From a virus (lineage: Duplodnaviria; Caudoviricetes): a DNA stretch of 62,182 nucleotides. The position numbers and the translations under genes were made by a program. Positions 25,940 to 61,900 of this stretch are shown one piece after another; the first letter of the stretch is position 1; each line of letters begins with the position of its first letter. Below the pieces are notes generated by a model that was given only the letters and a program-made list of their open reading frames with translations, searched no databases and was not told where the DNA came from. Location: positions 1 to 62,182 of the IMG/VR virus record IMGVR_UViG_3300043464_000452. One strand, given 5' to 3'.

Positions 25940-28900
25940 TTAAATCATTCCAAGTGTGCGCCAAGTTGCGTTAGCGTAAATATACAAACCAATTACTGAA
26001 TCTGTCTGATAAACTATTAACCCCTCAGCAGGAGATGCAATCGCTGTCCGCTGTGCAGCAGTCATCCGTGGAGGCAAAAACCCTTGCGTAGTTGACTCCA
26101 TCGTAAGGATTGAACTCGCTGCGTTGGTAGTTGTTCCTAGCAATAGTGAGCCGTACCATCTGCCGAAGGTTGTAGATGAGTTGCCTAGCACAGTAGTGTT
26201 AGAGCCTAAGCCTACTACATCGTAGCCTATTACTACCTCGTTAGTTGAGCCTGTAGCGTTAAGTCCTCTAGTTTGAAAACCTAAGTAAATAGAGTTGTTT
26301 ACAGAGGTCATTGCAGTAGTTCCTGAACCTGCGTATCTGCCTGAGTTACGACCAAACGCTATATTGTTAGCACCTGTTGTGTTAGCCAATCCTGCATTTT
26401 CACCAAAGAAAGAGTTTGAACTTGCCGTTGTATTAGATAATCCAGCACTTACTCCAAAGAAAGAGTTAGATGCTCCTGTTGTATTTCCTTGACCTGAACT
26501 TGTTCCAAAGAAAGAGTTATTACTTCCTGTTGTATTTGCAAATCCTGAAACCTGACCAAAGAAACTATTAGTTCCACCTGTTGTGTTTGCTGCCCCTGCA
26601 CTTGCACCAAAAAAAGCATTAGAGCCTCCTGTTGTATTGCCTGCCCCTGCACTTGCACCAAAGAAAGAATTGCTTGCCCCCGTTGTGTTTGCTATACCTG
26701 ATGACCTTCCAAAAAATGAATTATCATTTCCTGTTGTATTTGATGCCCCTGCACTTGAACCAAAGAAAGAGTTAAATATACCTATTGTGTTTGCTTGTCC
26801 TGATAACCTTCCAAAAAAAGAATTACTTGCTCCTGTTGTGTTTGATACTCCACAAGATTGACCAACAAAAGTATTATTTCCACCAGTTGTGTTATCCTGA
26901 CCAGCACTCTGTCCAATGAAGGTGTTATTTGTTCCAGTTGTATTTCTCCTTCCAGAAAGAAACCCTATAAAAGTGTTAGTGTTGGAAATATTATTTCTAA
27001 TTTCATTATTTATATTTCCTGAACTATTAGTAAATGTAACACTAGCACTCGAAGCAGAAATTACTCTAATCGATAAAACAATCGTTCCGTTAAAGTCAGT
27101 AGTTGGCACAATCTCAAGAGTTGCCGTTGATGTAGCCCTTGGACCTACTGCTCCTGTTGCAGTTAAAGAACTGAAAGTTATGCCTCCGTAGTTTATTACA
27201 AAAGACCCCGTTGTTCTTCCAGTTACTGTAAAGGTAATCTGATAATAAGTACCTACCACCGCTGCAAGCGTAGTAGTCAAAGCAGCCGTTGAGCCGATTG
27301 TATGCGTGTATCCTGTGGCAAAGTCCGTACCTGCCCAGTTCGTTCCTGTGCCTGTGGTAGCTAACTCAGAACCCAAAGGTGCGGTATCGGAAGCCGTAGT
27401 GCCTTGAATGGTTGATAAGCCGTTAAGTAAAGATGTGCCTGTAACTTGCAACATCTGACCTGAGTTGGTTGATGTGCCTACAAGTAGGTTACCGAACCAT
27501 CTTCCAAAGGTTGTAGATGTGTTGCCAAGCACAGTTGTGTTTGAACCTAAGCCTATGGCAGTGATACCGATTACGATTTGGTTTGTCTGATTGTTAGCAT
27601 TCGCTCTTGTGTTTGCACCTATAAATACAGAGTCGTTTGCAATTGTTAAATCAGTTGTTACATAAGCAAGAAATCTGCCTGCATTTATTCCAAAAAAACA
27701 GTTAGATACACCTGTTGTGTTAGAAAATCCTGAATTTATTCCAAAGAAAGAGTTGTTCCCTCCTGTTGTATTTGAAAATCCTGCAAATACACCAAAGAAA
27801 GAGTTGCTTCCTCCTGTGCTGTTTAATTCTCCAGACCTTGTGCCAAAGAAAGAATTGCTTGCCCCTGTGCTATTACTAATTCCTGAACCTTGACCAAAGA
27901 AAGAGTTACTTCCTCCTGTTGTGTTTGCTTGTCCTGAACTTGCTCCAAAGAAAGAATTGCTTGCCCCCGTTGTGTTTGAATTTCCTGCAAATATACCAAA
28001 GAAAGAGTTGTTATTGCCTGTTGTATTACTTGCTCCTGCACTTGAACCAAATAAAGAATTGTTTACTCCAGTTGTATTATTTCTTCCAGAGCCAAATCCA
28101 ATAAATGTATTTGTATTAGAATTACTAATTCTAATTTGATTACTTATTGCTGCTGAACTATTGTTAAATGTTACAACTGCACTTGAAAATGAAATAACCC
28201 GAATCGACAAAACAATCGTTCCGTTAAAGTCAGAGGTAGGAGTAATAACAAGCGTTCCTGTTGTGGTTGCTCTTGGCCCTACCGCTCCTGTTGCTGTAAT
28301 ACCTGCTGTAGTTGCTCCACCAAAGTCAATTGCAAAGCTACCTGCCGTTCTGCCCGTTACTGTGTATGTAATTTGATATAATGTACTTACCACCCCTGCA
28401 AGCGTACTTGTCAAGGTAGTAGTAGACCCTGCCACGTGGGTGTAGCCTGTGGCAAAGCTAGTCCCTGTCCAAGAAGCATCTCCTGTGCCTGTGGTTAGCA
28501 GTTCAGCACCTAGCTGCCCTGAGTCGGAAGCCGTAGTCCCTTGAATAGTTGATAAGCCGTTTAGCAAGGATGTGCCTGTAACTTGTAAGCGTTGACCTGA
28601 GTTTGTAAGACTTCCTAAAAGAAGGTTTCCGCCTGTTGTTAAGTTAAATAATGTACTTCCTCCTAGTGCAGCATCTGTACCTATTCCAAATGTGCCTGCA
28701 TCTGTTTGACCTGCATACCAAGAGTTAGTTACATTTTGATAACGAATATATATGTTACTAGTAGCTGTTGTTCTTTCAACAGTCAAAGCGTTTGCAACTG
28801 CTCCCTGCACCCTTGCAGTGCCGTTGACATCTAAAGCAAAGGTCGAGTTCGTAGATGTGCCAATCAGCAAGTTACCGAACCACCGCCCGAAGGTAGTAGA

Positions 28901-31900
28901 GGAGTTGCCGATTACTGTGGTATTGCTGCCAAGACCTATGGCTGTGTGACCGATTGCAATTTGGTTAGTTTCACTATTTGCATTTGCTCTGCTATTAAAT
29001 CCTATAAAAACAGAGTTAGTAGCGGTTGTTAAGGTAGTTGCTCCATCTGCTATAAATCTGCCTGCACTTCTGCCAATTGCCGTATTTCCTCCTCCTGTGG
29101 CATTATTTTGCAAAGCACCTGTACCTAATCCTGTGTTATTATTTCCTGTAGTATTTGAAAATAATGCATTAGTACCAAAAGCAGAATTTTCGGAACCTAT
29201 TGTATTAGCATTTAATGCACTAGCACCAACCCTTAGGTTTGTGCTTACTGCTCCACCACCTAGTCCAATGTTCACCCCATTCACCACCGCATCAGCAGTA
29301 GTGGTAAGCACCCCCTGCACCCTTGCAGTGCCGTTGACATCTAATACGAAAGCACCTGGACTTCCACCAACACCCAAACGCTTATTTGTATTATCCCAAA
29401 ACAATCCGTTATCCCCTGTCTGCGAAGTAGTCCCATTCCAAAAGGCTACTTGACCTGATGTTCCTGTGCCTCCTATCTTAGAATTAAAGGTTGTCCAATC
29501 AGCACTACTCAAAGCACCCCTATTCACAGCTGATGCTGTAGGCAGATTAAAGGTATGCGTATCAACTGCACTTAAAATATTAAAGTTAGTACCTGCTGTG
29601 CCTGTAGCAAAGTATTGAACCTGAGAAGTCAACCCATTCAATGCAGTTAGCCCAGTTGTAAACGTGGTTATAACTTGGCAAAGGTGGCCATTCTCAGTGT
29701 GTAAAGTAATTGTTCGTCCTGATGTATTGACATAAATACGTATAGCCAATCTATCCGTTAAAGTCAAAGTAGTCTGTGGAACTGCTAAAGCACTAAAGTA
29801 AGCCTCGATGTTTGTACCATCATTAATTAACTTAGGCGAACCACTATTGGATGCAATAAGTGTAAATGTAGTGCCATCATACTTATACAACTCAAGATAA
29901 AAGGTTGGACTTCCTCCACCGCTAGATGCACTAAAATATGTCTCAAAGTTCCAGTTACCAGCAGGGATTGCAAGTAAAGCAGGGTCACCAGCATCAGTTA
30001 AAAACGATGAAATATATCCGTTTGTATTTCTAGTAAAGTCAGTGCCTGCTCCAATAATTGGAGTCCTATTCATTTCGTAATAAGTCACTCCACCAATCGT
30101 TCCTTGATTAACAGAACCATTCAAGTAGTAACTTACAGATGCACCACCCCCAGTCCCACTAGTAGGTAATGTAGCCAACGCGCCATCACCACGAACATAT
30201 TGAGTAGCATTTCCTGCTCCGACAACGGTTAGTGTGCCAGCACTTGTTACAGGGCTGTTCGATACAGTAAAAGCAGGAGGCATAGATAGTCCAACTGAAG
30301 TAACTGTACCTACAAATTGGTCAGTGTACTGAGGGATATTTAGCACGTTAGATATTAACGTAGCTGCACCACTTGTACCTGTTGTAGTTAGAGTCAAAGC
30401 ACCTTGAGCTCCAATATCACTCAATATCTCAGCACCTGTTCTATACTTGATTACTCCACCATCTGATACAATGAACCTGTCGGTATCTGTAATAGCATTA
30501 GCAATTGTATTCACATACAAGTTACCAGTTATCTCAAGCTTGTATCCATTGTCTACTACACCAGTGCCAAGTATAAAGTTGCCATTAGCAAATACTCTAG
30601 ACACCTGAGTGCCACCAATAAATTGAACTACTACACCATCAGTATAGCTGTGTACAGTTGACCTCGGAGAACCGAAGTTGTTCATCTGTATAGCGTACGT
30701 GTATGGAGTCAGTCCAATGTTTGTAAAGTTTACCGTACCCCCGGTTGCGCTATTGTATTGAAAGTTAAATGCATCAGGGCCATAAGACAATGGGCTATCA
30801 GCTAATGATGTAGCACCACTCCACATCGGCAAAGTGAAAATCGTTCCTGTTCCTGTTACTGGATTAGTTAACGCATTCTGCTTATTGTTGAATGTGTTCC
30901 AGTCAGTACTCGACAGGTATCCATCTGAGCTTGCTCCCGACTGCGTGATTCCAATTGTGCCGGAACCAGTAATTGTCCCCCCTGTAAGCGGTCCAGTTGT
31001 GGAAATTGACGTAACTGTACCTACGCTCCAACTCCTGTTGGCAGACAAGTCAAATGTCGTACCATTAATTGTCAGCTCTCTTGTTAATGGAACACCTCCA
31101 AGCCCTGCTAATGTGTAGTTAGGGACATTTAATATTCCAGTTAGATTGCTATAAGTAGAAGCACCGCTGTTGCCTGTAGTCGTTAAACTAATTGCACTTC
31201 TAGCTCGTAGGTCGGTGTAGTATAAATTAGTTCCCTCAGCAATGTTAGTGGTTGTAAGCACAACTGCACCAACTTGTCCGTTAACAGAAATTACTGCGTC
31301 AGTGTTATCGACCTTCTCCCAAGCTGAGCCATTAAAGATGGCCCAATCACCAAGATTCCAATCGGTAATGCCGTTAAGGTTTGTATTACCAGCTACATTT
31401 ACTACATAGTAGTTACCCTGTACGCCTACTGAGCTCACTAAGGTTGGTGTATTAGTTGCTGCGTTCCATGTACCTTTGTACTGAACGCCACCAACAAGCG
31501 TGTTGATTTGATTCTGCACCTTACCAAACGCAGTAAGAATGCTATCAGTAGCAACAATTGCAGCCCCTGTAATATTAAGCCCTGTTAGGACTTTATTTAT
31601 TACAGCAGAGTTACTAAGCGTAACTGTTGCATTGCCGGGCCCTGAAGCAGTTGCTTCACCCGATAATTGGGTGATGTAGTTGCCAGCAGGCTGATATATT
31701 GTTGCGTCAAGGCTACCATCTGCTTTTAAAAACTGAGTAGCTAGTCCACCCCCAACAATAAATGCGGAAGAGGTAATATCAAAGGCACCTAAGTCTACAT
31801 TTTCAGTAGCCCCAATGTAAGGGACATAACTGCCCCCGATAATTAGACTAGCAATATCACCAATCGTAAAATTTTTGGTGATGTTCAAGTCCTCTACGTC

Positions 31901-31966
31901 CGTACCAATGAGCAAGTCATTTAGGGTAGGTTCAGAAATTATGGGGTATGTACTTATCTTTGCCAT
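25940..31966 (-). CDS. Long tail fibre/adhesin protein
   Basis: 2008 aa; YKGTWNAATNTP module, LSS.DW.TFN.K repeats, 14-aa NSFFG..(S/A)G..NTTG beta-roll repeats. Confidence 0.85.
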   Translation of the reverse strand: MAKISTYPIISEPTLNDLLIGTDVEDLNITKNFTIGDIASLIIGGSYVPYIGATENVDLGAFDITSSAFIVGGGLATQFLKADGSLDATIYQPAGNYITQLSGEATASGPGNATVTLSNSAVINKVLTGLNITGAAIVATDSILTAFGKVQNQINTLVGGVQYKGTWNAATNTPTLVSSVGVQGNYYVVNVAGNTNLNGITDWNLGDWAIFNGSAWEKVDNTDAVISVNGQVGAVVLTTTNIAEGTNLYYTDLRARSAISLTTTGNSGASTYSNLTGILNVPNYTLAGLGGVPLTRELTINGTTFDLSANRSWSVGTVTSISTTGPLTGGTITGSGTIGITQSGASSDGYLSSTDWNTFNNKQNALTNPVTGTGTIFTLPMWSGATSLADSPLSYGPDAFNFQYNSATGGTVNFTNIGLTPYTYAIQMNNFGSPRSTVHSYTDGVVVQFIGGTQVSRVFANGNFILGTGVVDNGYKLEITGNLYVNTIANAITDTDRFIVSDGGVIKYRTGAEILSDIGAQGALTLTTTGTSGAATLISNVLNIPQYTDQFVGTVTSVGLSMPPAFTVSNSPVTSAGTLTVVGAGNATQYVRGDGALATLPTSGTGGGASVSYYLNGSVNQGTIGGVTYYEMNRTPIIGAGTDFTRNTNGYISSFLTDAGDPALLAIPAGNWNFETYFSASSGGGSPTFYLELYKYDGTTFTLIASNSGSPKLINDGTNIEAYFSALAVPQTTLTLTDRLAIRIYVNTSGRTITLHTENGHLCQVITTFTTGLTALNGLTSQVQYFATGTAGTNFNILSAVDTHTFNLPTASAVNRGALSSADWTTFNSKIGGTGTSGQVAFWNGTTSQTGDNGLFWDNTNKRLGVGGSPGAFVLDVNGTARVQGVLTTTADAVVNGVNIGLGGGAVSTNLRVGASALNANTIGSENSAFGTNALFSNTTGNNNTGLGTGALQNNATGGGNTAIGRSAGRFIADGATTLTTATNSVFIGFNSRANANSETNQIAIGHTAIGLGSNTTVIGNSSTTFGRWFGNLLIGTSTNSTFALDVNGTARVQGAVANALTVERTTATSNIYIRYQNVTNSWYAGQTDAGTFGIGTDAALGGSTLFNLTTGGNLLLGSLTNSGQRLQVTGTSLLNGLSTIQGTTASDSGQLGAELLTTGTGDASWTGTSFATGYTHVAGSTTTLTSTLAGVVSTLYQITYTVTGRTAGSFAIDFGGATTAGITATGAVGPRATTTGTLVITPTSDFNGTIVLSIRVISFSSAVVTFNNSSAAISNQIRISNSNTNTFIGFGSGRNNTTGVNNSLFGSSAGASNTTGNNNSFFGIFAGNSNTTGASNSFFGASSGQANTTGGSNSFFGQGSGISNSTGASNSFFGTRSGELNSTGGSNSFFGVFAGFSNTTGGNNSFFGINSGFSNTTGVSNCFFGINAGRFLAYVTTDLTIANDSVFIGANTRANANNQTNQIVIGITAIGLGSNTTVLGNTSTTFGRWFGNLLVGTSTNSGQMLQVTGTSLLNGLSTIQGTTASDTAPLGSELATTGTGTNWAGTDFATGYTHTIGSTAALTTTLAAVVGTYYQITFTVTGRTTGSFVINYGGITFSSLTATGAVGPRATSTATLEIVPTTDFNGTIVLSIRVISASSASVTFTNSSGNINNEIRNNISNTNTFIGFLSGRRNTTGTNNTFIGQSAGQDNTTGGNNTFVGQSCGVSNTTGASNSFFGRLSGQANTIGIFNSFFGSSAGASNTTGNDNSFFGRSSGIANTTGASNSFFGASAGAGNTTGGSNAFFGASAGAANTTGGTNSFFGQVSGFANTTGSNNSFFGTSSGQGNTTGASNSFFGVSAGLSNTTASSNSFFGENAGLANTTGANNIAFGRNSGRYAGSGTTAMTSVNNSIYLGFQTRGLNATGSTNEVVIGYDVVGLGSNTTVLGNSSTTFGRWYGSLLLGTTTNAASSILTMESTTQGFLPPRMTAAQRTAIASPAEGLIVYQTDSVIGLYIYANATWRTLGMI
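26130..28598 (-). repeat. Tandem duplicated ~1.14-1.3 kb fibre module with internal 42-nt repeat arrays
   Basis: GQ.LQVTGTSLLNGLSTIQGTTASD starts at ~28598 and ~27461; GLGSNTTV.GN.STTFGRW occurs three times. Confidence 0.85.
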
Positions 31967-31985
31967 TAGCTCTCAGGTAATTGAA

Positions 31986-31993
31986 CAAATATA
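31986..31993 (-). promoter_or_regulatory. -7 promoter box TATATTTG for fibre genes
   Basis: TAnnTTTG consensus. Confidence 0.55.
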
Positions 31994-32455
31994 CTAAAGA
32001 TTAACGTAAGAAGTCTTGCCATTTGCACGAACAGCTTTCAACTTCTGCTTTCTGTTTTTTCCTTTAGTGTAAGATACGTGTACCCAATCTGGGTTCTTGT
32101 CAGTTCCAAACTCCCAAATCAATTGGTCGAAATTAAGATTGTCCTTAATGAAATTGTAAACGTCAGCATTAGTAACACCACTGCTGCTACCATCCATGTC
32201 GATGTCAATCGCTTCACCCTTACAATGCTGAGAGGATGAACTTCCCTTAATGAATTTATTAAGAGCCTCTGATCTGTAGCCAGAGCTGATGTGAATAGGA
32301 ACTCCAAAGTGCAAACGAATAGGTTCGAATACTTTCTCCGCTAGTAATTTAAAATTCTCTAAATGCTCAGCAGTAGGACTATTGTCAATGCCATTGCGTT
32401 TTGCAGAGTCACTTCTAGTAAGCTCTGATAGATTTAAATGTTGACTGATTTTCAT
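31994..32455 (-). CDS. Endolysin, peptidase M15 family
   Basis: SSGYRS...SQHCKGEAIDI...WVHVSY zinc-peptidase motifs. Confidence 0.88.
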   Translation of the reverse strand: MKISQHLNLSELTRSDSAKRNGIDNSPTAEHLENFKLLAEKVFEPIRLHFGVPIHISSGYRSEALNKFIKGSSSSQHCKGEAIDIDMDGSSSGVTNADVYNFIKDNLNFDQLIWEFGTDKNPDWVHVSYTKGKNRKQKLKAVRANGKTSYVNL

Positions 32456-33210
32456 TCTTTATTTAATTTTTTTTCACCTTCTTGAGTAGCATACTTAATT
32501 CCCATGATAGTACCAACTATTGAAAAGGCATTGGTTAATAGTACACTGAACATATTGCTCCATGTTGATCCAATAATTTGCGTGTCTTTACCTGTAATTA
32601 TTGCCATCCAATAGAGTATTGTCGTAACAACACCAACTCCAACTATCACAGACAGAGCAACCTTAACAATTACTTTTATTAATTCGCTCTGACCTTTTTT
32701 TATTATGATATCTAAATCATTCAACGCAGCATTTTTTTCTATCTCTATAGAATTTTTAAGCTGCTGTGATTTTTCTAACTCAATCTGTAAATCCTTTGAA
32801 AGAGCGTTTATTTTGTTTTTGCTATTGATAGTCTCTGTAATGTCAGTAGCAATCTTCATCACTTTTGTAATTACATTGCTCTCATTTAGGATAGGATTGT
32901 ATGTTGCCTGCAAATAAATTGGGCTCCCATCAATTTTTTTTCTCTCAAACTCTCCCTCAAAAAATTTACCTTCCCTTAGCTTCTCCCAAAATTTTTTGTA
33001 TTCATCAGACTTTGAGTACTCGTAACTAACAAAAATGCTATGGTGCTTTCCAATGAGTTGTTTATGGTCCTCTTCTTGATAGCCCATAGCTGTCAAAAAA
33101 ATGGAGTTCATCCCCAATATGTAGCCATCAAGGTCAAAATAAATAATAGCATTGCTTCTATTTATAGCCTCAAGCCTGCTGAGTAACTCTTCTTTGGAAA
33201 GGTTTTTCAT
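32452..33210 (-). CDS. PAS-domain, coiled-coil, two-TM membrane protein
   Basis: Residues ~10-128 match chemoreceptor-type PAS/PAC (AINRSNAIIYFDLDG.IL..N..FL..MGY....LIGKHHSIF...FWEKLR.G...GEF.R...DG..IYL.ATYNPI......KVMKIATDIT); two hydrophobic helices near the C-terminus. Confidence 0.85.
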   Translation of the reverse strand: MKNLSKEELLSRLEAINRSNAIIYFDLDGYILGMNSIFLTAMGYQEEDHKQLIGKHHSIFVSYEYSKSDEYKKFWEKLREGKFFEGEFERKKIDGSPIYLQATYNPILNESNVITKVMKIATDITETINSKNKINALSKDLQIELEKSQQLKNSIEIEKNAALNDLDIIIKKGQSELIKVIVKVALSVIVGVGVVTTILYWMAIITGKDTQIIGSTWSNMFSVLLTNAFSIVGTIMGIKYATQEGEKKLNKE

Positions 33211-33443
33211 TCTCCACTATTAGGCTTCTTGAATATTTTTTCAGCAGCAGTGATGCCTAAAGCAGCAGCAGACAAAGCCGCTACTGAATATACTAAAGCC
33301 TCAGATGGATCATTAACTGCATCGTGATTTGCGTATAAAGTATAGCACAAGGCTATCGCACTGAATACTCCAACAAATCTTTTGCTAGAAGCTTCACCAT
33401 TCTCGGACACGAATCCTTTTAACCATGTGAAAAACTGTTTCAT
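33207..33443 (-). CDS. Holin-like two-TM protein
   Basis: 78 aa, SSKRF motif, two TM helices, basic C-terminus, in lysis cassette. Confidence 0.65.
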   Translation of the reverse strand: MKQFFTWLKGFVSENGEASSKRFVGVFSAIALCYTLYANHDAVNDPSEALVYSVAALSAAALGITAAEKIFKKPNSGE

Positions 33444-33577
33444 CTTCCTTGACCCTTATATGACTTCTTGTAAAGCTTACTTGACTTATTGTTGCTAGTC
33501 TTGGTCTTAGCAGCTACGCCTTTACTGTTAGACTTCTTGACGTATGTGTTTGCGATTGAAATCTTAGCCTTTGCCAT
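33440..33577 (-). CDS. 45-aa basic protein (ends KKSYKGQGR)
   Basis: Read directly; TAATG overlap upstream and ATGA overlap with holin; below ORF-track cutoff. Confidence 0.7.
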   Translation of the reverse strand: MAKAKISIANTYVKKSNSKGVAAKTKTSNNKSSKLYKKSYKGQGR

Positions 33578-34035
33578 TACTTTATAAGAGCTAGAGTTTT
33601 AAGTTTTTTTATAATTTTATTAGCCTCATCTTCAGCAAAAGTTATTGCCTCTTCTTCTTTATCTTTTATGTCCCAGTTGTTAAGCAAAATAGCTAGATGC
33701 ATAGTCTCATGCATAATAGCTGTCTTCTGCTCATCAGCACTGTATCTCTTAAACGCACCCATATTCAAGAAAATAAAAGGCTTGTATGGATTTTTTGCTG
33801 TAAGTTTTTTATCATTTGGATTATAGTTTGTAAGACCATAGATGTAGACTCCGTTACCTTTTGTCTTGTCAACCTCTTCTGCTTGAGCATCTTTTAAATT
33901 TAGCCCATGCATTTCTTCTACATTGTAAAACTTAAATATATCAGTAGCATCCTTGCCTATTACAAGGATGTAATCTCCCATGTCAATTTTTTTAAAACTT
34001 GGAGACTTACTTATTATCTTTAAGCCTTGGTTCAT
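33577..34035 (-). CDS. HExxH zincin-like metallopeptidase
   Basis: IMHETMH followed by downstream EE; AT-rich. Confidence 0.55.
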   Translation of the reverse strand: MNQGLKIISKSPSFKKIDMGDYILVIGKDATDIFKFYNVEEMHGLNLKDAQAEEVDKTKGNGVYIYGLTNYNPNDKKLTAKNPYKPFIFLNMGAFKRYSADEQKTAIMHETMHLAILLNNWDIKDKEEEAITFAEDEANKIIKKLKTLALIK

Positions 34036-34037
34036 TA

Positions 34038-34322
34038 CTACTTTAATATTTCAACAATAACTTTTAACGCCCCCAATCCAACAAGTGTGACTAGTGCGTA
34101 AAAATAATTCTTGTATTTCTTTAATTCAGACTTCAATTCATATACCTCTTTCTTCATTGTCCTCAAGTCTCCAATCATTCCATTAGAGTCTTTGTCAATA
34201 GGATTGCCTGAAAGTAAAGTATGCATATCTTTAACAATAGCTTTAACCTCAGCTACGTCATTCTTTAACGCATCCAATTCAGCTGCCATATAATCAAGCC
34301 TATTGTTTTCCTGAGGATTCAT
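34038..34322 (-). CDS. Coiled-coil protein with C-terminal TM (lysis-associated, XhlA-like architecture)
   Basis: Heptad pattern then YFYALVTLVGLGALKVIV. Confidence 0.5.
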   Translation of the reverse strand: MNPQENNRLDYMAAELDALKNDVAEVKAIVKDMHTLLSGNPIDKDSNGMIGDLRTMKKEVYELKSELKKYKNYFYALVTLVGLGALKVIVEILK

Positions 34323-34580
34323 TTACCAAAGAGCTACAATATTGTTAGCTGTTGTGTCACTAGCGAATACTCTAATTACCTGGAAGGTAGTAAGGAATCC
34401 GTTTGGTATGTTTGTAAACGTAATGTCATCTCCTCCTGCTGTTAGCACTCGAAGGATTCCTCCGGTACCTACATACAATACACAGCCTTCTACTGCTCCA
34501 TTGCCAGGATTAGGGATATTTACAGTATCACTTTTAGTGACAACAGCTGCTCTTGATTGTTGTAATTTCTGATATGCCAT
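34323..34580 (-). CDS. Small virion protein (spike-base-like)
   Basis: LYVGTGG.LRV...GG.DITF..IP.G....QV.RV...T.A..IVALW pattern. Confidence 0.55.
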   Translation of the reverse strand: MAYQKLQQSRAAVVTKSDTVNIPNPGNGAVEGCVLYVGTGGILRVLTAGGDDITFTNIPNGFLTTFQVIRVFASDTTANNIVALW

Positions 34581-34591
34581 GATGTTATTAA

Positions 34592-34750
34592 TTAATCTTC
34601 TTTATATGGAAACGCACGGTTAAGTGCATCTTTTCTTTTTCCGCATCCACAATCTTTTCCTGCGGCCTTAGCAACAGTTTCAACTACCTTCTTAATTCCG
34701 GTAGCTTCAGTTATTTTTTCGATAGTATCTCCTAGTCCTTTACTTTTCAT
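34592..34750 (-). CDS. Small conserved phage protein (GLGDTIEKIT..TGIK, CGC motif)
   Basis: Likely ATG at 34750. Confidence 0.6.
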   Translation of the reverse strand: MKSKGLGDTIEKITEATGIKKVVETVAKAAGKDCGCGKRKDALNRAFPYKED

Positions 34751-34821
34751 ATTCGTTATAAGAAAGAATGGCACCAACCAATTAAGACTGATGCCGTTCT
34801 TATTCTGTTTAGATGAATAAT

Positions 34822-35217
34822 TTATTCAGCCTCAGATTGCTCAGCCTCAATACTTTCTACCCATCCTGCTAAGAACTTAAAGTTCTCAATACCTTCACTT
34901 GAGAAAGTAAACTGATAGAACTCAAAGGTATCATCAAGCAATGCCTTCATGTCCTTAGACATAGCCTTGATTCCTTCTTTAGTGAACTTGTATTCACCCT
35001 TCTCATTCAAGTCCAACACTCCACTTGATTCAGTATGAGCATGGTCAAGACGAATGTCTTCACGCTTCTCGTTGTACTCTTCAAATAGAGGCTTAATCTT
35101 TTCAGCAATTTTCTTAAGCTTAGCCTCTGCCTTGCTGCCTTTTTCAGTAGGAGTCATGTTCAATGATCGAACTAGCTCCAATAACTCTGAATTTGTTTTT
35201 GTTACTTTCTGTGCCAT
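34822..35217 (-). CDS. Hypothetical protein
   Basis: 131 aa with own -7 box at 35241-35248. Confidence 0.6.
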   Translation of the reverse strand: MAQKVTKTNSELLELVRSLNMTPTEKGSKAEAKLKKIAEKIKPLFEEYNEKREDIRLDHAHTESSGVLDLNEKGEYKFTKEGIKAMSKDMKALLDDTFEFYQFTFSSEGIENFKFLAGWVESIEAEQSEAE

Positions 35218-35249
35218 TTGATTTGATTTTTAATGATGAACAAATATAG

Positions 35250-35585
35250 TTAAACTTTAGAAATTCTTTTACCCATTCCAACTCTACTTTTCTCTGCCTT
35301 CTTTGCAGCAAGCTTTGCTGGACTTATTTCACTCTTAGTCTTTGGTGTTTCTGAAGACACTCGCTTAGTAGGTCGGCAGTACTCATTACGTCCACCTGCC
35401 CCACAGGATTTACCAGTCTTGGTATCCTGCCACTTCTCTGCTTCCCATCTTTTCAAACTAGAACCCTTCTCAGACTTAGTAACACTGCCCGATGCCTTAC
35501 GGCACTTAGCAATAGCCTGAGATGCTCTTGCAGAAGGGAATACATCGTAAGATGCCTTTACCTTTTTGTAGCAAGCGTCTTTCAT
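35250..35585 (-). CDS. Basic Cys-containing hypothetical protein
   Basis: DACYKKVK..Y.VFPSA...LKRW..EKW...CRPTKRVS..TPKT pattern. Confidence 0.65.
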   Translation of the reverse strand: MKDACYKKVKASYDVFPSARASQAIAKCRKASGSVTKSEKGSSLKRWEAEKWQDTKTGKSCGAGGRNEYCRPTKRVSSETPKTKSEISPAKLAAKKAEKSRVGMGKRISKV

Positions 35586-35875
35586 CAGTACTTACCTCTC
35601 TTACTCTTAGGGGATGATTGAGTAGATCCTCCAGGACCTGCCCATAAGTTCTTACATGCCCAGTACCTAGCAGATAATTTATCTGAAGCACTGTCGCATT
35701 TATGACGAGCCTTAAATGAAGACCGTGCCGCTGCTGAATAGTTATGACCATAACCCTCTGCACCAAAGTGAATTAGCTTTTCTTGTCCGTTAGAACAAGC
35801 TTTAACCATCCTCTTCTTGCCGGGCCTGTCAGAGGCAACGACACGATTACATTTCATCTTTGACTTCTCAGCCAT
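35585..35875 (-). CDS. Basic hypothetical protein
   Basis: IHFGAEG...SFKARHKC...SARYWAC pattern. Confidence 0.65.
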   Translation of the reverse strand: MAEKSKMKCNRVVASDRPGKKRMVKACSNGQEKLIHFGAEGYGHNYSAAARSSFKARHKCDSASDKLSARYWACKNLWAGPGGSTQSSPKSKRGKY

Positions 35876-35877
35876 AA

Positions 35878-36015
35878 TTACTTCTTCTTGCCTAGTTTTT
35901 TGGCTACAGCCTTTTTAACTACAGCTTTAACAGCCTTCTTAGCAATTGCTTTTTTTGGTCCACCTAGGACAGCAGCTTTGGGCATACCCATAGCCATCAT
36001 TTGATCTCCTTTCAT
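35878..36015 (-). CDS. 45-aa histone H1-like Lys/Ala protein
   Basis: MKGDQMMAMGMPKAAVLGGPKKAIAKKAVKAVVKKAVAKKLGKKK, read directly. Confidence 0.7.
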   Translation of the reverse strand: MKGDQMMAMGMPKAAVLGGPKKAIAKKAVKAVVKKAVAKKLGKKK

Positions 36016-36036
36016 TTCTTCTTTGGTTAAATATGG

Positions 36037-36056
36037 TACCTTTGTTTACAAATGTA
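36037..36056. promoter_or_regulatory. Face-to-face -7 boxes: TACCTTTG (+, 36037-36044) and TACATTTG (-, 36049-36056)
   Basis: Two TAnnTTTG matches on opposite strands, 4 bp apart, in a 50-bp divergent intergenic gap. Confidence 0.6.
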
Positions 36057-36065
36057 ATAATAAAA

Positions 36066-36542
36066 ATGAAATCAAATAAAAGAGACTACCTGAAATTCTG
36101 GAAAGTAATTCGTGAATATTTTAAAGTAAGGCACAATCTAAGCCAAGCAGATCTAGACATGCTGCTATACCTATACTCAGAACGCTACTTTAATATCACC
36201 ACCTTTAGGGAATACGAAAAAATATTTAGCTGGAATAAAGAAAGGTTCTACAGATTAATAAAAGAAGGATGGATTGAGCTCTTTGCAAGTAGACAGAAGG
36301 GTAGACCTGCCATGAGATCTAAGGCATTGTACTGCCTGTCCTATAAGGCAAAGCGAATGATTAACTCAATCTACAAAAAGTTAGAAGGAGAAGAAATTCC
36401 TGAGACAATGTGCAACAACCCCATGTTCAAGAAGAACGTGAGGTTCTCAGACAAGGTCTACAAGAATATGATTATTACTATGAATCAGGAACTAAAGGAG
36501 AATAGACTTACAGGACAAGAACTACGTCACGTTCCTGAATAA
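36066..36542 (+). CDS. Winged-helix (MarR-like) DNA-binding protein
   Basis: LSQADLDMLLYL...RLIKEGWIE...LYCLS.KAK wHTH pattern; likely start 36066. Confidence 0.55.
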   Translation: MKSNKRDYLKFWKVIREYFKVRHNLSQADLDMLLYLYSERYFNITTFREYEKIFSWNKERFYRLIKEGWIELFASRQKGRPAMRSKALYCLSYKAKRMINSIYKKLEGEEIPETMCNNPMFKKNVRFSDKVYKNMIITMNQELKENRLTGQELRHVPE

Positions 36543-55769: not shown

Positions 55770-55921
55770 CCTTCACTACAGAAGGATTCCATGCCAGCGT
55801 TGCCGAGATTTACGAGAAGCTCGTGGACAGGGAGTACGGGTCAGTTAAGGATGAGGTGAAGTCCTTGATAAAAGACCTGAGAGATATCATCAAGACAATA
55901 GAATATGATGAGGACTTTTAG
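55724..55921 (+). CDS. Hypothetical protein
   Basis: ORF track; converges on the giant gene. Confidence 0.5.
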   Translation: MDASLQQERDRAERIAFTTEGFHASVAEIYEKLVDREYGSVKDEVKSLIKDLRDIIKTIEYDEDF

Positions 55922-58900
55922 TCCCCACCATACAACTGGTCCTTCATCTTCTTTTTAAACTCTCTCTGCTCCTTCTCGAAGGCTTTCACTTCCTGCTCTA
56001 CTTCATACGCAGCAGACCCTGGTCCATACATCTGGTTATATAACTCAGGGTTATACTTTTTCATGTCGGTCTTATTCATCCCTCCACCCCTGCTGCTTCC
56101 TCTGCCTCCAGATGACTTCTTCTTGGCAGGTGCTTCTCCTTTGTAAACTTCAGCTACTCCTGCCTCCTCTTTTAGATTCTTCATCAAAGTTTTAATCCTG
56201 TTATATGCAGGGATTGATGTGCCATAAAATACGTTTAGTACCGCCTGAATTATAGTGAAGGATGTATTCAAAGCCAACACTTGAAGTTCTTCATCTTTGG
56301 TTAAACTTTGTATACCATTCTTTTCTACCTTATCGTATATAGCTTTGATTTCATTTTTAGTACCAATTAAATCATTATATCTATCTGCAATCATAACGAA
56401 CTGAGGTACAAATCTAGCTATAGCAACTAACGCTTTATCTTTTCCAATGAAACTATCTACATCTTCAACTGGAAGAGGATCAACAAATACACTATTCTTC
56501 AAAATCTTTTTAATCTTAGCCTTCTGATCCTCATCATCTGTAGATTCAATTGCTATCGTAGCAGCTAATTGAAGTAAAGCCTTCCCACCAGCAGAGTACT
56601 TACTAGCCACAAGAGATGCGGCATTTGATGCAAATTCCTCTAGTGCTCCTTGTGGTGTAAGTAATGATTCAAGAATTTCATTTCCTCTCTCCTCATCATC
56701 CTCATCTCCAAGCAAAATAAGTTGTCCTGCATAGGCTAGAGTTCCAAGGAATCCATAGGCTGCTAGATTTAGAGATACACCAAGTGGCTTTTGTAGCTTG
56801 CTCAATGAGCCCCTAACATCTCCTTTTCTTATAAGCTCAGCAGACTCTTTAAATCCATTTATGAATTCAGTGGTCTCTCTATATGGATAGTTACTAAAGA
56901 ATCCTAGTATCTTACCGGCAATGCCACTCTTAGACACAGTACCTTCTCTACCAAAAATACCAGCCAAAAACTTTGGTAATATTCTTATCTCACGTCTCTG
57001 CCCAGCCTTAGTTGTTGGACCAATAATCTTCTCAGTCTGAGTATCAGCCACAGCAGACGCTTCTCTAATAGCCTTGCCATACTTCTCTCTGTAGGCTGAG
57101 CTGTCATTGAACTTGTTGATATCAAACTTCTCACCTGTGATATTCTGAAACTCACTAGCGAATGTTGGCATCCATGAGGTAACCATCATCGTTCTTTCTG
57201 GAAGACCAGATAGATACGTAGTCATCTTAGTTAATCTACTCTGAGGCTCTATACTTCCTTCATTGATGTCAATAGCCTTGTTAATATTCTCTCTTAATCT
57301 AAGCGGACTATCAGTGAACTCAAGAAGTTTACTCATTTTTTTCTGCTCACCAAACAAAGCCTTGTAACCTGAGAACATTTTCTCAGCTCTAGTTGGGAAA
57401 GATACAGCAGTGGCTCCTAATTCTACACCTGTACGTACAGGGTCCAGCAATGTCTGAGCCGCTCTAGCAGCAAGCAATGTATCAAATATCAAATTACTTT
57501 CAGCTCTTTCAAACTCATAAGCCAATGCATCTGATAGCGTGTAGGATATGGTATCTAGTAACTCAAGTTTATCTTTGTTTATTTTTTTTCTGACTCCAGA
57601 TAAAGTATTGTTTATATCCTTAAGTGCTTTAGATAAGAAGTAATCTCTACTAGTTTGCTCTAGTCCTTTTATGAATAGAGTTTCAAAGTTAGTCATGATA
57701 GGACCAACAGCCTCACTTACTCTCTCCTTACCTGTACCAGCTTTGACTCTAACTACACCACTCTCATAAGATGATGTTGGTGCAATCTGAGTCTTGCCAC
57801 CATCAAGTCTAACCCTCATCATGTGGAATGGAATCTCTTTGAATGAAGCCCCATTAATCTCGTTAGCAATCTTTTGCTTTGGTGTAATTTCAGATGCCTT
57901 ATATTTCATTACATCATCAAAGAATGCTTTCTCCTTCTTATTGAAGAACTTACCATCATCATCGATGTAACTATCATATACTGCTTTAGGGTCTACATTA
58001 CCATCTTTGTCTTTAGGAAGGCTCTTCCAAATCTTCTCAATTACATCTATGTCTGATGACCCAAGTCCAATCATTTTTTTAAGTGATGGCTTTCCAGTTG
58101 AGTACTTACTTCGCATAGACTTGTCGCTCAATATTTCCTTGAACCAGTCACGCTTTCCGATATTATCAACACCCTTATTCTTAGGATCAAACTGAGCCAT
58201 GTACTCCTGTAGATATGTGGTTAGCATACCTATCTTATTCATTTGCTCATTATCAATATCATACTTCTTCTTAAGCTTTAAGAACTCATCAAAGCTTTTT
58301 CTCATTGAGTTCTCATAGGATGCAATAGCCCTGTTGAATGGAGATACAATAAACTTTTGTAGTGCTCCTGCCTTAGCTCTTCCCATTCCAAGAAGCCCTT
58401 CCCAGAATGAACTTTCATTTTCAGATAGTTCTTTTCTTCCTTCAGTAGAAGTCATGTCGAACTTAGAGTCATCAATTTGCTTAGCAAGTGGATCAATACC
58501 ACTGCTTGTATATGCTCTAGATACAACATCACTGAATCTATATGGGTCAATCTCTCCGTTGCTTATGTTATATAGCAAATCATTTAGAACAAATAAGTCC
58601 TCAGGAGATAGACTCTTAAGGTCAGCATCGCTAAGTTCTAGGTACCTACGAATCAAATCATTCTCCTCATTACTGAATTGAGGATTAGTCTTTGGTCTCT
58701 GGGTCTTTATCTCAGATATTAAATCGCTCTTTATCTTTTTAATTTGTTCTGCATACTTCTCCTCGATTTTGGATTGATCCTTTCCAGCTCCATCAATCAA
58801 GTCATTATATTCTTCTTGAGAAATAGCTTCATTCTTTAGTAGTTGATATGCCTTTCTTTTAAATGAATTGATATCTTTTATAAGTGCTACATAGTCTTCT

Positions 58901-61900
58901 ACATTCTCAACCTTATTAGACATGATGCTCTTATACTTATCTATTAGGTCATCATTTGTCTTTACTGCATCGAACTCTTTAGATACCTGATATGACAATG
59001 TCTTATCATAAATCTCATTCATGCTAGTATAAGAAGGCGTTCTATTATTTAAGAAGTCAAGTGCTTTCTTATAGTCCTGTACTTTATCAAGTGGAATATC
59101 CTCAGGGTTAATAGAAGTAAATTGATTTACTGCATCAGTCATTGAAGTATGGTTCCTAGACCTAGCCTGACGCTGTAACTTTCTTAACTCATCCATGTCA
59201 GCTGCATAGTTGGCATTGTCAAATACCTTCTCGATGTATGCAAGCAATCTATCAACCATGATAGGATTGTTTAGATTAACCTTACTAATTCTGTTTACTA
59301 TGGTCTTAGTTTGAGCAGTCGTTATAACTCCACCATCTTCAAACATACGTATTCCATCAGCTAATGCAGCTCTCTTCTTATTAAGGTCACCAGTAACTTC
59401 TTTAGCCTGCTTTATCTGCTCCTTAATTATTCTATCTCTCTCCTTAGCTAAATCAACGGTGATTGTTACAACGTCTTTCTTCTGGCCCAATACCTTCTTA
59501 GCACTAGGAGCACGCTTCTCACGCTTTTCGAGCTCCTTGTTTACATTTCGGACCATAGCCTCACGCTGTACATCAGTAGCGTTCTCGTATACCTTGGTGC
59601 CCATCAAGTAGTTAATAGCATTATTGATTGTATCTTCCTTAGATACACCACGTATGCGTGATTTAGATACTATACCCTTTTCACCGAACATGTTATTGAG
59701 TACTCGGTCATACCCAGGAGCAAACTCTTCAGTTACCTCAACCTTCTTAGCTGTTGGCACCTCCTTAGCTAACGCTTCATTAATAGCATCAGTATCTACA
59801 CCACTTCTTGTAAGTACATTTTTAATAGCAGCCTCAGAGAATCCTTGTGCTCTAGCCTTACTAATAAAGCTGCTAATATTATCACCTATCCTGAATCTTA
59901 TGTTTGATGTTTCTGCATCAAATGTCCCAATGTTTTCTGTTGCAGATTTAATCTGATTAGGATTCCAAATAGCTACAACAGTTCCTGAAAGATCTTTTAC
60001 CGCTTGCTTTGTATCCTCTTTATTTGTTGTTCCATAGAACATGTCTGCTAAATCATTAGCAATTACACCATCATACTCAGTATTATTATATGCTGAGTTA
60101 TTACCGGTAAGAGCTTCAATCAAATCAGATTTTCCACTAACAGTTTTATAACCAATATCTAAAGATGCATTATCCCATCCTTTCATATCTAAATTATCAC
60201 CATTAAATTCAAACGGAGATTTTACATTTAGGAATACCTCATATATTTTGCCTTCAAAAATGGAATTTAATCTGTCTATTTCTTGTGCATAAAAATCCCA
60301 GGTAACATTGTTTCTTGATTCAGATTGTTTTTCTTTTGCTTCACGTAATAGATTTTCTATTTCATTTCTATACTCTTTGCTTAAAGGTGCTTTTCTATAT
60401 AGATCAGCTAGTTTTTTATTTGATGTAAAATAATTAGCAAACTCTCTTAATCCACTCTTTTGTCTAACAGCTTTATTGATATCAAAAGATTCTATGTCAA
60501 CTGAAGGAGACCCATGATACATAACTAATGGTTCACCATTCTCATCAACAACCTTTGATGCATTCTCTGGATCATTCTCCCAATCACCAAACCATTTCTT
60601 AAACTCAGGAGTCCTTACTTGATTCCATTGAGCTTCATTTAAATTTGATGGCTTCCCATTAGGTGCAAGTCTTTGAGTTCTAGATTCTCTAGCTGTGCCC
60701 TTACCTGCATCCTTGGCTTTGAATTTAGGACTAACGGCTTCTCCTTTAAGCAAGTCAGCAAGACCTATATTGATAAAGTCATCAAGAGTAATTTCTTTAA
60801 GTCTCTGCTCAAAGTCAGTGCCCTTAAAAAATTGTTCGCTCGTAGTAAAGAATTCTTTTACATACTTAAACAATGAGTTCAACCAGTTCGTGAACTGCTT
60901 CTTCTTGGACTTATTAATTATTGTCTCACCCTTTGTAGCCATCAATTCTACAAGAGCTTCTTCTCTAGCTATTGGATTGTCACCATACTTTTCAATTGCT
61001 TTTTTCAAAGCATTAGTACCCTCTACTAACGATAAGCCTTTAGCAAGTAAAGCATCTCCTTTCTTACCTGAAGCTTTGGATCGTAAGAAGTCAATCCATA
61101 CGTGACCGAACTCGTGTATAGGTGTAGCAAGAGAATCTGAGTTAGGATTCAAGTATATCTTACCATCTTTAGTTAAACCAAGGATAGTAACTCCTCCAGA
61201 CTTTTGTGTTCTTACACCTTCTTGATTCAATACATTATCAAACTCTTCTTGAGTTCTAGATACAGTAACGTCAGGGAAAGCAAACCTTAACTTTGCAGCA
61301 AGTATATCAACATCGGTTGGGTTGATTGCAACCCTAGCATTTCTGAATGCCTTATCTATAAAGAACGCTCCCCCAACTTGATCAGCTATAGCACCTTCAG
61401 TTGGAAGTTTTCCCTCTCCTTTCTTTGGTTTTGTTTTCTTAAATACTCTAACTGCCTTTGCTTTCCATTCTGGAAACACATCAAGACCATGCTTAGGATT
61501 ACTAATCAAAGCAATCATTTGTCCCTTAGGGCCAAATCCATAGTTGCCATGCTCTACTGGAATAACTCCTCCGTTTAATACATCAATACCAACTACAGCT
61601 GCAATGTTTCCTCTAGGTATTCTTAACATTGCTGGCTCACCTATCGCATCATATATTGTATCTGCTAGAAAAGCTTTTGATTTTGGATCTTTATTAGAAC
61701 CAAATAATTCTTTCACTGGATTTTTTGATGCTGATTCAATACCCTGAGGTGAAACCATTAAATCAAATAGATTTGATCTATCTGTTAATGACAATGTATT
61801 ATCTAAGTCTCCTTTTGCTCTTGCTTTAGCATCTGCTACAACAGCATCAAATAATTTACCTAATGAATCTATATTATTTTTAGATATAAATTCAATAAGA

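Follow-up and report, generated by a model that had tools for sequence, protein, structure and literature searches.

A PAS domain membrane protein encoded between a putative holin and an endolysin: a candidate signal-gated regulator of phage lysis

Among the life-history traits of phages, the timing of lysis is a central one. Class II holins and pinholins, such as S21 of phage 21, are two-transmembrane (TM) hairpins with the N-in/C-in topology and a charged cytoplasmic C-terminus, and are encoded beside the endolysin. In staphylococci and bacilli, the LytSR two-component system, in which LytR is a DNA-binding transcription regulator, controls the holin-like and antiholin-like proteins CidAB and LrgAB. 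The vibriophage VP882 is said to encode VqmA-Phi, a PAS sensor of a chemical cue and a DNA-binding transcription factor implicated in the switch from lysogeny to lysis. Lysis inhibition in T4 is attributed to the action of the antiholins RI and RIII on the holin T (PMC8385771, PMC11413866), and environmental control of lysis timing has been well studied essentially only for T-even lysis inhibition and, lately, for ICP1 (PMC7182436). Here we analyze a gene of the tailed virus record IMGVR_UViG_3300043464_000452 which encodes a 252-amino-acid (aa) protein consisting of a PAS domain, a helical stalk and a two-TM hairpin, and is located between the genes for a putative holin and an M15 peptidase endolysin. 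We take this gene, at slightly better than even confidence, to encode a signal-gated accessory protein that regulates the time of lysis. The analyzed window is the whole record, a complete-looking virus sequence of 62,182 bases in which a greedy call yields 91 open reading frames (ORFs). The genes of interest and the parts of the 252-aa protein are the following.

33207-33443, minus strand: 78-aa two-TM protein, putative class II-like holin, denoted hol78 (ORF call)
32452-33210, minus strand: 252-aa protein with a PAS domain, a helical stalk and a two-TM hairpin (ORF call, Pfam, AlphaFold2, homologs)
31994-32455, minus strand: 153-aa M15 peptidase endolysin (Pfam Peptidase_M15_3, 4.5e-20; phrog_894, endolysin, 7.6e-37)
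32833-33153, minus strand: PAS domain, residues ~20-126, predicted to be cytoplasmic (Pfam PAS_9, 3e-11)
32683-32832, minus strand: helical stalk, putative coiled coil, residues ~127-176, continuous with TM1 (AlphaFold2)
32497-32682, minus strand: conserved TM hairpin, residues ~177-238, comprising TM1, a short loop and TM2 (alignment, helical wheel)
32455-32496, minus strand: charged C-terminal tail, residues 239-252 (sequence)

The 252-aa protein resembles class II holins and pinholins in the predicted topology of its hairpin, and the polar/small face of TM2 could line a small channel; it differs from them in carrying 180 extra N-terminal residues (the PAS domain and the stalk), in the far stronger conservation of the hairpin, in matching no holin family and in being encoded by an optional gene. 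By analogy, the system would work most like the antiholin-controlled lysis of T4, and the kinase-driven form described below recalls the LytSR-Cid/Lrg circuit, but no sequence, fold or wiring is common to the window system and either the T4 antiholins or LytSR-Cid/Lrg. RI and RIII are described, as we propose for the 252-aa protein, as accessory phage proteins that couple a signal to holin timing and are dispensable for lysis itself. RI is small, periplasmic and thought to sense superinfection, whereas the signal here would be cytoplasmic, and RI is not known to have the PAS or GAF domain, two-component input or conserved TM hairpin that characterize the present family. The likeness to LytSR lies in a kinase and a response regulator tied to holin-like membrane proteins that govern lysis; unlike in the chromosomal system, the phage receiver has no output domain, and its presumed target is the neighboring membrane protein, or else the sensor is fused to that protein directly. 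In short LOV proteins, LOV-histidine kinases, NifL, MmoS and Aer, as in the 252-aa protein, the PAS domain is directly followed by a long helix, which carries the signal in those sensors, but the output of the 252-aa protein is a TM hairpin rather than a kinase, HAMP or MCP module. VqmA-Phi reportedly is likewise a phage-encoded PAS sensor that decides when the host is killed but, unlike the 252-aa protein, is not a membrane protein of a lysis cassette. A full-text literature search, assessed from titles and the beginnings of abstracts, detected neither a holin or antiholin coupled to a sensor domain nor a two-component system of phages whose output lies in the membrane, and no published description was found of this architecture, of which the preliminary description of the locus had known no example in a phage lysis cassette.

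That preliminary description had placed the three ORFs and two 4-base ATGA overlaps at this locus, and all of these are present on the minus strand, with one overlap joining the 78-aa and 252-aa genes and the other joining the 252-aa and 153-aa genes; its assignment of the 153-aa protein to M15 endolysins agrees with the profile matches listed above. We propose that the 252-aa protein is translationally coupled to the putative holin and the endolysin and is made together with them.

The association with lysis genes, a survey of which had been suggested from the outset, was examined in 237 loci with 4-6 kb flanks, in which genes were called by a longest-ORF rule and the ORFs are intact; neighbors were clustered and named using Pfam, PHROGs and local profiles built from the loci themselves. 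Among the 84 raw loci encoding PAS-fused relatives, which are not phylogenetically independent, an endolysin is found within 1, 2, 3 and 4 genes in 52, 59, 69 and 73 loci, respectively, and 7 of the 11 loci without an endolysin within 4 genes are cut by a contig end. When a single locus was retained for each unique protein and the local profiles were rebuilt, an endolysin adjoined the gene for 44 of the 68 unique PAS-fused proteins and was located within four genes in 59, including 42 of the 46 cases with complete flanks (at least four genes on each side). As a baseline for a random gene, about 8 of the 90 other ORFs of the window are no more than four genes away from the one endolysin that it encodes. 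The nearest endolysin of the PAS-fused members belongs to the M15 (34 cases), GH19 (17), GH24 (4), PG_binding+GH19 (2) or phrog_33083-like (2) families, and the other neighbors include hol78 family proteins, Phage_holin_4_1, XhlA-like and spanin-like proteins. The gene order varies: the endolysin is found on either side, and hol78 may precede or follow the PAS gene, such that the 84 raw loci display 65 distinct local arrangements. The linkage with the endolysin thus outlasts both the exchange among unrelated endolysin families and the changes of gene order. Judging from these gene neighborhoods, the PAS gene is a genuine member of the lysis cassette.

The PAS gene is optional in this cassette. 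In a search started from the 78-aa protein, the downstream genes were read at 80 loci with a hol78 relative. The PAS gene directly follows hol78 at 32 of these, with the endolysin next in 31 and the remaining locus truncated where its contig stops; at 47 loci the PAS gene is wholly absent, and one locus was too short to judge. Within the PAS-less loci, the endolysin starts no more than 30 bp from hol78 in 31, the intervening gap contains a pair of i-spanin-like (N-terminal TM segment and coiled coil) and o-spanin-like (lipobox) genes in nine, and it contains two small membrane proteins or a u-spanin-like protein in seven. Hence, as would be expected of an antiholin or a timing regulator, the gene is encoded in the lysis cassette and absent from 47 of the 80 cassettes that keep the putative holin and the endolysin. 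The PAS gene appears to fill a slot that is used by lysis accessory genes in a cassette that exists without it, and this natural variation implies that the gene is probably dispensable for lysis. The optional presence therefore favors a regulator over a primary holin. The preliminary description had proposed a PAS-gated holin or antiholin that times lysis; the regulatory part of that proposal is consistent with the membership in the lysis cassette and with the phage restriction described below, whereas the role of a primary holin is disfavored. At L189:4236-4887, i-spanin-like and lipobox o-spanin-like proteins are encoded between the hol78 relative and the endolysin, and at L228:4227-4718 this place is taken by one protein that combines a lipobox with a C-terminal TM segment; these clear spanin-like genes point to diderm hosts.

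The PAS-stalk-hairpin family was observed almost only in viral contigs. A large protein collection yields 5,327 proteins at E<=0.001, a count that includes PAS-only matches; the best 120 of these are all 359-381 aa long and match PAS models only, and the two that were compared with the window protein (P0001 and P0015) contain a tandem PAS pair in front of the same stalk and hairpin, with about 76% identity. IMG/VR contains 282 relatives in one-PAS and two-PAS forms, and hundreds of intact full-length relatives show 70-90% identity. Among 185,579 prokaryote species, represented by one genome each, there are only four close matches, all on short or medium contigs of metagenome-assembled genomes (L082-L085) that are classified in four unrelated phyla or classes (Ignavibacteria, Flavobacteriales, Saprospira and Saccharibacteria). 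These four contigs are probably mis-binned phage DNA because the taxa are discordant and phage endolysin genes lie next to the PAS gene. Four further matches in the species genomes are cellular proteins that align with the PAS domain only, at 33-40% identity. A search with the stalk-hairpin part alone (residues 127-252) retrieves only 97 clusters out of 1.84 billion representatives, in proteins of 29-371 aa of which this part invariably forms the C-terminal end, and the three best clusters in the ESM Atlas are unnamed and labeled 'Viruses 100%'. In a tblastn search against 50,697 GenBank phage records, the whole 252-aa protein gave three matches, to the PAS part only, and neither the stalk-hairpin nor its 190-aa relative (see below) gave any match at E<=0.1 in the same records. 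The preliminary description had regarded homologs confined mostly to bacterial chromosomes, or scattered over random phage contexts, as evidence against its idea; the PAS-fused family follows neither pattern.

Analysis of the 252-aa protein with Pfam detected PAS models only (PAS_9, residues 22-126; PAS_3, PAS and PAS_4), with the family cut-offs passed by PAS_9 (44 bits against 27) and by PAS_3 (37.5 bits against 25.6). As the preliminary description had stated, no output domain of the kinase, MCP (MCPsignal) or cyclase type is detectable in this protein with Pfam at E<=1, and neither is a HAMP domain. The preliminary description had likened the PAS subtype to that of BdlA-like chemoreceptors. 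Some JGI records designate homologs as 'methyl-accepting chemotaxis protein' but these homologs carry only PAS models, and the 252-aa protein itself, having no MCP signaling domain, does not belong to this class. Nor is it a spanin, given the soluble N-terminal PAS domain and the absence of a signal sequence and a lipobox. The AlphaFold2 model (mean pLDDT 71.8) consists of a five-stranded PAS fold at residues 20-123 (strands 21-25, 30-34, 84-91, 97-108 and 114-123, with helices between them), an unbroken helix 125-206, a 4-residue loop and a helix 211-250, and together with the Pfam results fits the PAS, coiled coil and TM hairpin organization described previously. Foldseek connects the PAS domain with the PAS domains of LOV proteins, NifL, MmoS and Aer (E ~1e-9 to 1e-8, probability 1.00), and sequence matches in the PDB are MmoS (3ewk, 4e-6) and NifL (2gj3, 7e-4). 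In the PDB sequence alignment, the histidine of the window motif GKHHSIF is aligned with a histidine of MmoS and a glutamate of NifL, at what we take to be the position of the photoactive cysteine of LOV domains. These nearest relatives by sequence and fold are FAD- or FMN-binding sensors of redox state, oxygen or light. The PAS domain of the window protein probably binds a cofactor or ligand, and redox or oxygen might be suggested as the signal only from its likeness to flavin-binding PAS domains. The best fold match of the window model in BFVD is a phage histidine kinase (48% identity), and the PAS domain of a phage histidine kinase from the two-component type described below is 40% identical to that of the window protein. 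A BFVD match of the 252-aa protein to a 'Class III holin' (E 0.039, TM-score 0.26) is not significant and was rejected.

The hydrophobic stretches of the 252-aa protein (~177-205 and 212-238) have lysines on their N- and C-terminal flanks, and the topology should be N-in/C-in, with the PAS domain, stalk and tail in the cytoplasm and the loop in the periplasm. Conserved positions of the stalk in the alignment are A162, D165, L166, K171, Q174, E176 and L177. In the hairpin, Y200, W217, T226, F229, I231, T234 and G237 are invariant and N219, N227, S230 and G233 are near-invariant among 61 sequences; on a helical wheel, N219, T226, N227, S230, G233, T234 and G237 share one 120-degree face of TM2. 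The stalk-hairpin part has no match in Pfam, PHROG or the PDB.

The same stalk-hairpin occurs behind several different inputs, namely one PAS domain, two PAS domains, a GAF domain (2.5e-17) or a small conserved N-terminal cap that follows a phage kinase and receiver. The cap characterizes a second viral group (317 relatives) in which the module forms a protein of about 190 aa (AlphaFold2 pLDDT 88.8; helix 38-151, loop, helix 156-189). The operons of this group consist of genes for a membrane-anchored PAS histidine kinase (410 aa; HATPase_c, 9.5e-15, and PAS_3), a single-domain response regulator (148 aa; Response_reg, marginal at 30.3 bits against a cut-off of 30.2) and, in the last position, the ~190-aa stalk-hairpin protein. 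For the 100 unique cap-type proteins, a receiver is encoded upstream in 92 cases and a kinase in 89, and some of the kinases add a GAF domain, as in the GAF-PAS-HATPase_c kinase at locus L254. The window itself encodes neither a HATPase_c kinase nor a receiver protein of the two-component type. The flanks of the two-component operons include GH19, PG_binding_1+GH19, M15, GH24, PG_binding_1+Amidase_2, Phage_holin_4_1 and hol78-like genes, with an endolysin within 4 genes for 46 of the 100 unique proteins and 29 of the 52 with complete flanks, a weaker association than that of the PAS-fused form. For the GAF-fused form, an endolysin is located within four genes in two of the three unique cases.

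Because one membrane module takes PAS, PAS-PAS, GAF or phosphorelay input, the stalk-hairpin appears to behave as a signaling output domain. The hairpin, which the preliminary description had called holin-sized, is indeed present and can now be specified as a strongly conserved output module common to the PAS-fused, GAF-fused and two-component forms. No fused forms longer than 441 aa were found. Apparent stand-alone short hairpins (81-131 aa) could not be established because the fetched ORFs extend upstream to ~190 aa, including a conserved N-terminal region, or sit at contig ends, and partial TsaD, family-2 glycosyltransferase or SOUL domains in front of the stalk-hairpin (P0254, P0278 and P0267) were discounted as probable chimeras of gene calling or assembly; a real fusion of the heme-binding SOUL domain would be interesting but was seen only in this partial form.

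Several individual loci of the module are worth mentioning. The GAF domain is fused to the stalk-hairpin at L249:1969-2991, L250 and L251; these viral contigs measure 182, 160 and 38 kb, and either a hol78-like gene or a GH19 endolysin is found no more than three genes from the fusion. At L166:5124-5702, and also at L167, a gene for a 192-aa bacteriorhodopsin-like protein (Bac_rhodopsin, 3.8e-12) is located directly upstream of the stalk-hairpin gene, inside the operon, suggesting a possible link to light or membrane energetics. A family of 176-187-aa proteins with no Pfam or PHROG match is encoded directly after the stalk-hairpin gene in 48 of the 80 loci L090-L169 (e.g., L108:6330-6860) and may be a further component of the system. 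Finally, some operons, at L152:1838-2338 and at 12 further loci, have an additional gene between those for the receiver and the stalk-hairpin protein; its 162-167-aa product contains two hydrophobic segments and, at the C-terminus, a coiled coil.

The putative holin, hol78, contains two hydrophobic segments and an acidic loop, and its flanks are basic on both the N- and the C-terminal side. We retain the holin label of the preliminary description as putative because of the small size, the two hydrophobic segments, the charged C-terminus and the conserved place directly upstream of endolysins; the label goes beyond what family profiles convey, given that hol78 matches none in Pfam or PHROG. Weak TssN matches in 9 of 32 members of the hol78 family in the Pfam and PHROG scans were judged to reflect composition only. 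An endolysin is found within ~1.1 kb after the hol78 relative in 78 of the 80 loci. That hol78 is so consistently encoded upstream of the endolysin is currently the strongest indication that it might be the holin.

From this combination of features, we infer how the 252-aa protein might affect lysis and in which direction, which signal and cofactor it might use, and how it might act in the membrane. The cytoplasmic PAS domain would be joined by a long continuous helix to the conserved N-in/C-in hairpin. The state of the PAS domain would be passed along the stalk and would alter the packing or oligomerization of the hairpins in the inner membrane, and the altered packing would advance or delay the triggering of the holin. 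Along one possible route, the hairpin would form a small depolarizing channel and fire whichever holin is present, and it is established that collapse of the membrane potential fires holins prematurely. Along the other, the hairpin would bind the holin and act as an antiholin. We lean slightly toward the depolarizing route because the hairpin is almost invariant while the holin-like neighbors (the hol78 family, Phage_holin_4_1 and others) and the endolysins vary, a pattern for which a trigger independent of the particular holin accounts better than a specific contact between two proteins. More broadly, we put forward, tentatively and at a little under an even chance, a modular phage system for post-translational control of lysis, in which the stalk-hairpin effector would be driven by a fused PAS or GAF domain or by a kinase and receiver, in accord with the condition of the host as to redox, energy, light or metabolites.

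A number of observations weigh against a regulator of lysis timing. The borders of lysis cassettes are hot spots for accessory 'moron' genes. In the FastTree phylogeny of the module, a single branch (local SH-like support 100) separates the 58 PAS-fused rows from the remaining ones, so the linkage with lysis genes is partly inherited; it was probably acquired once and then kept, rather than arising in 68 independent events. Among the two-component loci with complete flanks, 23 of 52 lack a recognized endolysin within 4 genes, and the commonest arrangement among 80 loci (L090 type) leads into genes of unknown function. Holins do not usually have so nearly invariant a hairpin, and this conservation could mean a conserved host target outside lysis; no holin family profile of Pfam or PHROG matches the 252-aa protein, none gives a holin family for hol78, Foldseek produced 0 matches in the PDB at E<=0.001 for the 190-aa stalk-hairpin model, and the PAS part of the window model is only moderately confident (block means 61-77). 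Several of these points would fit a membrane effector that is unrelated to lysis and merely sits beside the lysis genes as a moron and has a conserved component of the host membrane, or the energetics of the membrane, as its target, acting, for instance, in superinfection exclusion, in the shutdown or modulation of host transport, respiration or motility, or in counter-defense. This alternative also draws on the optional presence of the PAS gene in the cassette, on the location of about half of the two-component relatives away from recognized lysis genes, on a hairpin kept nearly constant across diverse phages and dissimilar to known holins, and on the rhodopsin gene inside the operon at two loci, which hints at general membrane energetics. 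Yet, in three separate clades of the module, adjacency to the endolysin has persisted while endolysins were replaced and genes rearranged, the PAS gene occupies the exact slot between holin and endolysin in the window and 31 other loci, a slot otherwise taken by spanin-like genes, and the 252-aa gene is translationally coupled on both sides. Taken as a whole, an effector outside lysis therefore seems to us unlikely, albeit a serious competitor.

A different role within lysis would make the PAS protein the primary holin and the 78-aa protein an antiholin or a second holin. The 252-aa protein does possess holin-like traits, namely a two-TM N-in/C-in hairpin, a charged C-terminal tail and a place beside the endolysin, and 18 of the 68 unique PAS-fused proteins have neither a hol78-like nor a Phage_holin_4_1 gene within 4 genes. 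However, it is 252 aa long and optional in the cassette, the 47 PAS-less loci retain hol78 directly upstream of an endolysin, and the stalk-hairpin module is also encoded apart from recognized lysis genes, so that we consider this assignment improbable. Far less plausible still is a meaningless arrangement in which the gene would be what is left of a bacterial PAS gene that was captured and is now decaying: the distant cellular relatives of the PAS domain might be cited in its favor, but the abundance of intact full-length relatives, the invariant hairpin positions, the integrity of the ORFs across all 237 loci and the conservation of the architecture in three wiring variants speak strongly against decay. 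A regulator of lysis timing, accessory and gated by a signal, thus remains the explanation that we favor.

The chain of closely spaced genes extends upstream of hol78, where three additional small genes are found.

33440-33577, minus strand: 45-aa lysine-rich ORF (ATGA overlap with the 78-aa gene; weak phrog_17967 match, 0.0045)
33577-34035, minus strand: 152-aa ORF with an HExxH-like motif (weak Peptidase_M56 match, 0.043)
34038-34322, minus strand: 94-aa coiled-coil protein with a TM segment at the C-terminus (phrog_937, 'hemolysin', 0.0054)

The 45-aa and 152-aa ORFs share one base (TAATG), and the coupled chain thus reaches upstream to the 152-aa ORF, which stands at its head and could encode a small metallopeptidase of the lysis region. 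Relatives of the 45-aa ORF recur upstream of hol78 at related loci (neighbor clusters C4 and C10). The 94-aa protein is weakly similar to XhlA-type lysis-associated proteins, and a clearer relative at locus L016 scores 2.2e-6. The window also contains two giant ORFs on the minus strand, 25940-31966 and 55918-62061, of 2,008 and 2,047 aa, respectively. The former lies directly downstream of the endolysin and has internally repeated Gly/Asn/Ser/Thr-rich segments of a tail-fiber-like character; parts of this ORF recur in related loci at 30-79% identity. A DNA similarity search of window positions 31000-35000 against GenBank phages returned a single irrelevant 192-base match. A promoter and terminator scan of 31500-36200, which was based on sigma-70 and may not suit the host, did not exceed shuffled controls. 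No tRNA genes were found in the window, and a simple pattern search detected no lipobox protein, that is, no spanin candidate, among its products.

Regulated lysis as such is known, but there is a real chance that the system described here represents a new kind of phage signaling. If the proposed function is correct, the family would provide the first example of a holin or antiholin gated by a sensor domain, as well as the first two-component system of a phage that acts through a membrane protein instead of transcription. The stalk-hairpin would then be a new output module for one- and two-component signaling, and the family would supply biotechnology with a compact natural lysis switch controlled by a ligand or by redox state. 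The natural variants, with the gene present or absent and with fused or phosphorelay wiring, make the idea directly testable. Because the hairpin module is wired to a PAS domain, a GAF domain or a phage two-component system across phages, the present observations suggest that many aquatic phages time the lysis of the host by sensing the state of the cell. Many uncultured aquatic phages would then read host physiology to time their bursting, with a bearing on models of viral mortality and nutrient release.

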